Shown piece after piece: positions 5,116 through 5,592 of a DNA stretch of 17,466 bases. The notes beneath the pieces are model-generated. The model ran no database searches, was not told the origin of the DNA, and was given only the letters and a program-made list of their open reading frames with translations. Positions within the stretch are counted from its first letter, which is position 1, and every line of letters starts with the position of its first letter. Position numbers and translations under genes: made by a program. Source of the stretch: a virus. Location: the IMG/VR virus record IMGVR_UViG_3300025121_000749; one strand, written 5' to 3'.

Positions 5116-5592
5116 ATGGATGATTACACCGAGAAAAAACTCAGCGAACTTCGAGACGAACTACGCAAAGCGAAGTCTAAAAGACTACTTCGAGTTCTGC
5201 TCTGGGGAATAACAGGAGCTGTTGTCTTCTTAGGTCTCGTCATTCTAACCTTTTGGGCATGGCCCAAATACCGTGTTTACAGCCAACAGAAGGCCGGTGA
5301 GGCCGCGTTGAAGAAAGCCGAATTCGAGCGCCGCACGATGGTAGAAACAGCGCGCGCAGAAAAGGACTCAGCGGTGTTCAAGGCTGAAGCAGAAATTGAA
5401 CGCGCTAAAGGTGTTGCTGAAGCAAACCGTATCATCGGCGCGTCGTTAAAAGACAACGATGCCTATTTGCGTTACTTGTGGGTCCAAGGCCTCAACGATG
5501 GGTCCACTGAGACCATCTACATTCCCACAGAGGCAAACCTGCCGATCTTGGAAGCGACAAGGCGACGAGAAGAACCTACACCAGTCAAGTAG
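5116..5592 (+). CDS. membrane-anchored protein with SPFH/band-7 (stomatin/HflK/C) C-terminal-tail-like region
   Basis: N-terminal TM helix 'LLRVLLWGITGAVVFLGLVILTFWAW'. A Lys/Glu/Ala-rich helix 'KAEAEIERAKGVAEANRIIGASL' then '...YLRYLWVQGL...ETIYIPTEANLPIL' resembles the C-terminal tail of stomatin/HflC/QmcA proteins. SD GGTGAGGT lies upstream. Confidence 0.6.
   Translation: MDDYTEKKLSELRDELRKAKSKRLLRVLLWGITGAVVFLGLVILTFWAWPKYRVYSQQKAGEAALKKAEFERRTMVETARAEKDSAVFKAEAEIERAKGVAEANRIIGASLKDNDAYLRYLWVQGLNDGSTETIYIPTEANLPILEATRRREEPTPVK

Follow-up and report, generated by a model that had tools for sequence, protein, structure and literature searches.

A stretch of viral DNA of 17,466 nucleotides (IMG/VR virus record IMGVR_UViG_3300025121_000749; "the window" below always means this whole stretch) encodes a homologue of the major vault protein (MVP), followed directly on the same strand by a short gene for a membrane-anchored protein (5116-5592). 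The C-terminus of that protein resembles the tail of SPFH proteins such as stomatin and HflK/C, and the shoulder of MVP has an SPFH fold as well. The locus therefore raises the question of whether the short gene encodes a partner of a viral vault-like assembly or came to lie beside the MVP gene by accident. We find that it belongs to a large phage family whose members retain the C-terminal part of an SPFH protein without its core, and that, judged by gene neighbourhoods, its adjacency to MVP is accidental. We refer to it here as the tail gene and to its product as the tail protein.

The tail gene and its relationship to SPFH proteins

The tail gene runs from an ATG start through 158 codons and a stop, occupying exactly positions 5116-5592 (+), and inspection of the sequence reveals a Shine-Dalgarno-like GGTGAGGT (5102-5109, +) located 6 nt 5' of the ATG. 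A search of 5.8 billion proteins recovered 2,626 homologues at E<=1e-3. These are mostly 130-145 aa long, and many family members of that size share 49-74% identity with the tail protein. An exhaustive profile search against cluster representatives (50% identity) yielded 1,305 clusters at E<=1e-3 and 875 at <=1e-10; every one of the best 150 clusters is short (112-276 aa). The protein also matches phrog_11227 over almost the entire profile (E=3e-47, 161 bits; residues 27-151 against profile positions 12-133 of 138). Because it has thousands of homologues and this family match, the tail gene is certainly real, and its product is a new member of a catalogued, uncharacterised phage family. Two minus-strand open reading frames (ORFs) over the same region (4497-5117 and 5517-5732) were dismissed, the plus-strand ORFs being the ones with thousands of homologues. 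Neither Pfam, searched with the protein and 40 relatives, nor NCBIfam has a model for the family. PADLOC recognised neither the tail protein nor MVP, and a scan of positions 4700-6400 for sigma-70 promoters gave zero sites.

The relationship to SPFH proteins emerges from several searches. The tail protein matches positions 274-348 of the 379-position profile of phrog_200 (E=4e-6), a phage SPFH/Band 7 family that in turn matches Escherichia coli HflC (6.6e-30), HflK (1.7e-29) and QmcA (9.3e-17). In the reverse direction, residues 187-281 of E. coli QmcA, which lie past its SPFH domain, match phrog_11227 (E=2.8e-5). When all PDB sequences were searched with a family profile built from 95 sequences, the top four matches were PHB2 twice (7e-4 and 9.5e-4), prohibitin (2.4e-3) and QmcA (0.029), and all four map to the coiled-coil and C-terminal region that follows the SPFH domain. 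Aligned by hhalign to a QmcA-family alignment, the same profile paired residues 60-142 with QmcA 192-282 (probability 79%, E=1.5e-5, 83 columns), from the start of the first coiled-coil segment (CC1) to QmcA 'SKVVMMPLEAS', which is paired with 'TETIYIPTEANL' of the tail protein. The QmcA profile used here is shallow, as the QmcA protein search gave near-identical enterobacterial sequences alone. Single HflC and HflK sequences produced weak local coiled-coil matches (E about 0.03), and on these comparisons QmcA and prohibitin are the closer types.

Viral SPFH proteins point the same way. In a tblastn search of GenBank phages, residues 79-152 match the C-termini of haloarchaeal tailed-virus proteins annotated as 'SPFH superfamily' or 'prohibitin family' (E about 1e-6). 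The protein of Halorubrum virus VOLN27B aligns its last 74 residues (217-290) without gaps to residues 79-152 of the tail protein, with 35% identity and 64% positives, and carries Pfam Band_7 at residues 33-228 (7e-32); it is thus a full-length viral SPFH protein with the same tail. Five independent lines of this kind indicate that the C-terminus of the tail protein is homologous to the post-core region of SPFH proteins, which comprises CC1, a second coiled-coil segment (CC2) and the beta9 strand with the C-terminal tail (beta9/CT).

The SPFH core itself is absent. Pfam Band_7 was found at E<=1 in neither the tail protein, 40 family members nor the longer members, and the gap between the transmembrane (TM) helix and CC1 spans about 11 residues only. 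Prohibitin, QmcA and HflK-HflC (Band_7, PF01145) have in common with the tail protein an N-terminal anchor and a homologous CC1-CC2-beta9/CT tail, whereas their SPFH1/SPFH2 core of ~150-180 residues is replaced in it by 11 residues. The tail is usually far less conserved in SPFH proteins than in the tail-only family, and their NfeD or FtsH gene partner is not found beside the tail gene. The full-length phage SPFH morons of phrog_200 (e.g. orf75 of Burkholderia phage CSP3) are phage-borne and SPFH-related like the tail family but keep the Band_7 core, while the window protein matches C-terminal profile positions only. As the superfamily's defining Band_7 core is absent, the protein should be labelled SPFH-tail-derived and not an SPFH-domain protein.

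Within phrog_11227, S-PM2p012, gp274 of vB_KpM_FBKp24 and the PhiEaH1 member are of the same size class as the window protein and share its TM and tail layout and its invariant motifs; the window protein differs in having a longer charged N-terminal extension. The existing names of both phage families are misleading. The PHROG label of phrog_200 is 'lipoprotein', although this is an SPFH/Band 7 family, and that of phrog_11227 is 'protease', although there is no protease domain. Members of the latter are called 'membrane protease subunit' or 'stomatin-like protein' in GenBank, the 'protease' name having been inherited from COG0330.

The family alignment and an AlphaFold2 (AF2) model of the monomer (single chain, 40-sequence alignment; mean pLDDT 86) divide the protein into six segments. 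The charged N-terminal extension (aa 1-26; 5116-5193, +) contains 9 K/R and is predicted to be cytoplasmic from its sequence, the alignment and a topology count. It is longer than in most members: the TM segment begins at residue 27 here, whereas the median start in the family is residue 9. The single TM helix (aa ~27-48; 5194-5259, +) includes the 19-residue window of maximum mean Kyte-Doolittle hydropathy (2.4; residues 27-45) and lies within an AF2 helix, residues 3-111, with pLDDT >94. It is followed by a short linker (aa 49-59; 5260-5292, +), which stands where full-length SPFH proteins have their SPFH1/SPFH2 domains and bears the family-conserved motif P-x-Y-x-V-Y...G-x-A; P50, G61 and A63 are invariant in the family alignment and Y52 nearly so. 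The CC1-like long helix (aa 60-111; 5293-5448, +), which includes AEAEIERAKGVAEANRIIG, was assigned from the AF2 helix and from alignment to QmcA 192-245 and PHB2 193-250. A CC2-like short helix (aa 115-127; 5458-5496, +), with AYLRYLWVQGL, corresponds to a second AF2 helix at 115-127 and aligns to the 'GYIKLRKIR' region of PHB2; its residues Y117, L118, Y120, L121 and W122 are nearly invariant across the family alignment. The remainder is an extended tail in the model. It holds the beta9/CT-like segment (aa ~131-147; 5506-5556, +), TETIYIPTEANLPILEA, aligned to QmcA 'SKVVMMPLEAS', PHB2 'NRIYL' and VOLN27B 'KTIYLPSD'. This is the most conserved part of the family, with Y135, T138, E139, P143 and E146 invariant.

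With 7 K/R in the N-terminal flank of the TM helix against 3 in the C-terminal flank, the positive-inside rule weakly suggests an N-in/C-out topology, which would place the tail region outside the cytoplasm. The original prediction had been made from the letters of the stretch and described a TM-anchored protein with a C-terminus like the tail of stomatin/HflK/C and no full SPFH core. The hydropathy peak and AF2 helix, the PHROG, PDB, hhalign and BLAST matches, and the missing Band_7 match with its ~11-residue gap agree with it on each of these points.

The adjacency to the major vault protein gene

The gene directly upstream (2346-4994, +) is an MVP homologue (Pfam MVP_shoulder 3e-29, Vault_3 3e-11) for which 5,501 relatives were found; we treat it as context and not as a partner. 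A near-identical MVP copy is located on a 244-kb contig, and for this reason the source of the window is probably a jumbo phage. As had been proposed, the MVP shoulder is of SPFH type, with a Band_7 match (E=4.7e-4) within MVP_shoulder. It had further been suggested that the tail protein is a membrane anchor or partner of an MVP assembly. On such a model, it would tether or cap the assembly by SPFH-type contacts with the MVP shoulder. In favour of such a role, the two genes are adjacent and on the same strand both in the window and in a 95%-identical variant (IMGVR_UViG_3300048609_000057; L019/L023), and the vault is now grouped with SPFH-type complexes (PMC12624060). The unusually long, charged cytoplasmic N-terminal extension of the tail protein might also be seen as fitting it.

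The distribution of the two genes in other genomes argues against this role. Co-occurrence was evaluated in windows of +/-6-10 kb around the genes. None of 80 bacterial MVP loci (mostly Myxococcota, 1.35 Mb) contains a member of the tail family according to an unfiltered family HMM, nor does any viral MVP locus outside the window's own lineage, L019/L023. No member was found within +/-6 kb of MVP in the huge-phage records LR756500 and LR756501. Conversely, among 92 tail-gene loci (up to +/-10 kb), MVP occurs in L019/L023 alone and is missing from the other ~90, and the two closest homologues of the tail protein (74% and 72% identity) are encoded on phage contigs without MVP. On both of these contigs a DUF5658 gene (L003 5785-6102; L006 8454-8753) accompanies the tail gene at a distance of at most about 2 kb, preceding it in one and directly following it in the other; there is none in the window.

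Gene order in related phages is informative about how the adjacency arose. The nearest syntenic relatives, whose MVP is 61-63% identical to that of the window, are L008, L009, L010/L011, L020 and L021, the four nearest holding three distinct MVP proteins. Window and relatives have the order o1814, o2026, MVP, YpsA(SLOG), o6671 in common. The YpsA/SLOG gene (6202-6720, +; Pfam YpsA 2.6e-13) is the conserved downstream neighbour of MVP and is adjacent to it in L008-L011, L020 and L021. The window and the 95%-identical variant alone have three additional genes between MVP and YpsA. They are the tail gene and two small ORFs identified by synteny and a PHROG match (together 5667-6198, +): 5667-5951, of 94 aa, and 5962-6198, of 78 aa, which belongs to phrog_2293, a family of unknown function. 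In the syntenic relatives, which follow MVP with a hairpin and then YpsA, all three are absent. On this synteny, the tail gene and the two small ORFs are a ~1.1-kb lineage-specific insertion between MVP and YpsA. The GC content of the inserted DNA does not depart sharply from that of the downstream genes.

The hairpin helps to define where the segment entered. Between the MVP stop and the tail gene lies a long hairpin followed by a T-rich run (5001-5087, +; fold -53.7 kcal/mol, z=-4.3), the longest inverted repeat of the window. When the intergenic regions are aligned, a long GC-rich hairpin and a T-rich run are seen right past the MVP stop in every relative (L008 ~8640-8715, L009 ~8650-8725, L010 ~8440-8490). 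The stem sequences vary by lineage and still pair, the position is constant, and the next ATG follows about 30 nt on. A simple terminator scan detected the inner part of the large hairpin only, and a search of the whole window against Rfam gave no match. The hairpin probably acts as a terminator for MVP or as a site of RNA processing; present at the same place in the relatives, it belongs to the 3' end of MVP and not to the tail gene. The insertion therefore lies 3' of MVP's terminator-like element.

These observations leave little for a tie to MVP. The closest MVP relatives lack the tail gene, a strong conserved hairpin and T-run separates the two genes, and the predicted N-in/C-out topology would put the tail across the membrane from MVP. 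An hhalign comparison of the tail profile with the C-terminal region of MVP gave a probability of 0.2%, that is, no similarity. MVP has an SPFH fold in its shoulder and builds an SPFH-related cage (PMC12624060), but it resembles the tail family in no part of its C-terminal region and does not co-occur with it. In the literature, a preprint on phage MVPs describes no neighbouring gene of membrane or SPFH type, and we found no MVP-SPFH gene pairing described in phages. The anchor or partner role is therefore largely refuted by the missing co-occurrence, and we consider it very improbable; the adjacency is best read as accidental, with no sign of a conserved partnership. A true MVP partner would have informed the function of prokaryotic and viral vault-like particles, on which an accidental neighbour gives no handle.

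Distribution of the family and its possible roles

If the tail gene is not tied to MVP, its many other contexts become the guide to its role. In GenBank, 88 phage records contain a member, those of S-PM2, SPN1S and jumbo phages of Klebsiella and Erwinia among them, and the family is ~50% identical among phages of Enterobacteria, Ralstonia, cyanobacteria, Chryseobacterium and more. Salmonella phage SPN1S carries the tail gene as a moron on the opposite strand, placed between terminase and portal; in an uncultured myovirus and in Pantoea phage AAM22 it is part of replication or early modules, and in the Klebsiella jumbo phage FBKp24 it lies beside NadR/PnuC genes. In S-PM2, a well-studied phage, the member S-PM2p012 (L106 3462-3866) is encoded in the early region. 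In cyanophage S-SZBM1 (L016 3962-4369), the gene is part of an hli-ferredoxin-peroxiredoxin-psbA auxiliary-gene cluster, about 0.7 kb downstream of psbA, the gene for D1, which is an FtsH substrate. Further members are located just 5' of the terminase genes of a prophage in a 4.8-Mb bacterial contig and near an integrase on a Woesearchaeota contig. Clustering of the ORFs within +/-3 kb at 92 loci revealed no neighbour family common to >6 loci, the 6 in question being related phages. The tail gene has no SPFH-core protein in its vicinity (93 loci, 1.46 Mb), and no NfeD/YbbJ, FtsH or second-SPFH-subunit partner is conserved beside it (92 loci). From these neighbourhoods, the tail gene appears to be a mobile, stand-alone, moron-like accessory gene of many phages and prophages.

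Some of these contexts could also suit a membrane protein whose role has nothing to do with SPFH assemblies, such as superinfection exclusion (Sie), a block of injection, or an i-spanin-like or holin-regulator function in lysis, in which the coiled coil would serve as a periplasmic rod. In its layout, a long helix after an N-terminal TM segment, the tail protein is reminiscent of i-spanins and of some Sie proteins, and the moron position in SPN1S and the position just 5' of terminase in the prophage would be compatible with such roles. We nevertheless find them improbable. No endolysin, holin or o-spanin is conserved near the family at the 92 loci, and there is none in the window. Spanins and Sie proteins diverge fast, whereas the tail family is strongly conserved and homologous to SPFH tails; the lack of a PADLOC match counts against these roles as well.

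Solved SPFH cages offer a more specific guide. In the structures of HflK/C, prohibitin, erlin, flotillin, stomatin and QmcA, CC1 forms the wall, CC2 bends inward as the roof, the beta9 strands build a parallel ring, and the SPFH domains occupy the rim nearest the membrane (PMC12624060). Assembly depends most on the CC1-CC2 transition and on CC2 contacts, and the C-terminal caps are the most variable part among complexes (PMC12624060). The wall, roof and ring elements are exactly the segments that the tail family has kept, joined directly to the TM helix and strongly conserved, and we therefore favour oligomerisation in the SPFH manner. If an empirical relation that links the number of subunits to the length of CC1 (y = 0.178x + 10.2; PMC12624060) is applied to a CC1 of 52-63 residues, about 20 subunits would be expected, a value that is an extrapolation and not a result.

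The explanation that we regard as probable, by a modest measure, is that the tail protein is a core-less, SPFH-derived accessory protein that assembles with copies of itself in the SPFH style and is unlinked to MVP. The family would have arisen from an SPFH protein of the stomatin/prohibitin/HflK-C kind through loss of the SPFH1/2 core, retaining the N-terminal TM anchor and the module of cage wall and cap (CC1, CC2, the beta9 strand and the C-terminal tail). The tail gene would then have entered this phage lineage together with the two small ORFs, between the MVP terminator hairpin and YpsA. Its copies may pack side by side through SPFH-type CC1/CC2/beta9 contacts into a TM-anchored crown or ring at the cytoplasmic membrane of the host, predicted for the window protein to be on the extracytoplasmic face. 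During infection, such a ring could fence off or perturb a patch of membrane or a client membrane protein; the leading candidate client, by analogy with HflK/C and prohibitins, would be an FtsH-type protease. Function is argued here from homology, and oligomerisation, topology and any effect on host proteostasis are inferred, while the data show that the gene is real, a member of its family and an insertion, and that it encodes a homologue of SPFH tails with neither a core nor a conserved partner.

Several observations weigh against this explanation, among them the lack of a Pfam or NCBIfam model for the family. The Pfam Band_7_C model, a search for which had been proposed along with the original prediction, gave no match to the tail protein (hmmscan of Pfam-A, E<=1). 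Foldseek returned 0 matches for the AF2 monomer against the PDB, a comparison in which a helical rod is uninformative. Family-wide, the flanks of the TM helix are balanced (mean K+R 2.0 N-terminal vs 2.1 C-terminal), which makes the topology ambiguous, and our literature search found no experimental work on the tail-only family.

The same kept segments could also serve a different end. Being the inter-subunit contacts of SPFH cages (PMC12624060), they might allow the tail protein to join host cages (HflK/C-FtsH, QmcA/YbbJ or prohibitin-like) as a poison subunit or decoy without SPFH domains, opening or disabling the cage and altering FtsH-dependent proteolysis. Possible consequences would touch lambda CII-type lysis-lysogeny factors, membrane-protein quality control and, in cyanobacteria, D1 turnover. 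The best matches of the tail protein, being of QmcA and prohibitin type, are compatible with this, as are the location close to psbA in S-SZBM1 and the presence of the family in temperate contexts. Phage SPFH genes have been proposed, as speculation, to be morons acting on the HflKC/FtsH axis (PMC10269572, PMC8540360). The family is also present, however, in strictly lytic jumbo phages. SPFH caps vary most among complexes, yet the family remains ~50% identical across hosts, which would be unexpected if it had to fit host-specific tails; on this ground we prefer homotypic assembly and consider the decoy unlikely.

Whether it builds a homotypic ring or not, the tail family is a very common, strongly conserved and mislabelled family of phage accessory proteins. 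Having kept only the oligomerisation tail of SPFH proteins, it could be used as a minimal model of how SPFH rings assemble. It may also mark a strategy of viruses directed against the SPFH/FtsH membrane quality control of their hosts, an idea that tractable phages would allow to be tested. A bolder proposition, which we advance tentatively and think doubtful, is that phages and integrated archaeal elements spread a core-less SPFH protein that rewires membrane proteostasis, either by forming its own crown or by inserting into host SPFH-FtsH cages. If true, this would be a widespread viral tool aimed at a highly conserved membrane scaffold, and the CC1-CC2-beta9 tail alone would be enough for SPFH-type ring assembly.

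Other genes of the window and relatives of its MVP

The conserved MVP block spans positions 1814-7207 of the window. Its YpsA/SLOG gene has both YpsA and DprA-like Pfam matches and is also recognised by the ShosA models of PADLOC (E=2e-5), ShosA being a component of the Shosta defence system. Further along the window are genes for an ADP-ribosylglycohydrolase (8018-8959; Pfam 1e-68) and for an NT5C-like nucleotidase (10974-11669). The combination of MVP, SLOG and the ADP-ribosylglycohydrolase suggests an NAD/ADP-ribose theme reminiscent of vault PARP, and a 2026 preprint ties TIR-like NADases to the vault (10.64898/2026.05.01.722283).

Full-length MVP homologues with 45-57% identity are abundant in Myxococcota metagenome-assembled genomes (Kofleriaceae, Haliangiales and Nannocystaceae; L107-L186), and others occur in Candidatus Achromatium, Planctomycetota, Vulcanimicrobiota and Ozemobacteraceae. 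Taking one genome per species, 276 stretches with an MVP homologue were confirmed, and some metagenome-assembled genomes have two or more copies. At about 40% identity, homologues are also encoded in the 462-kb and 735-kb 'huge phage' records (L001 and L002, LR756500 and LR756501).

Two more genes of the window stood out. An N6/N4 DNA methylase (306-1580) is only 81% identical to its counterpart in the close variant (L019 7350-8750), with an indel between the two sequences, while the rest of the variant is 95-100% identical; the methylase may be a divergence hot spot. Finally, positions 12491-13048 encode a 185-aa protein with an FHA domain (2e-12) and a YbaB/EbfC DNA-binding domain (4e-11), a fusion that looked unusual for a phage.

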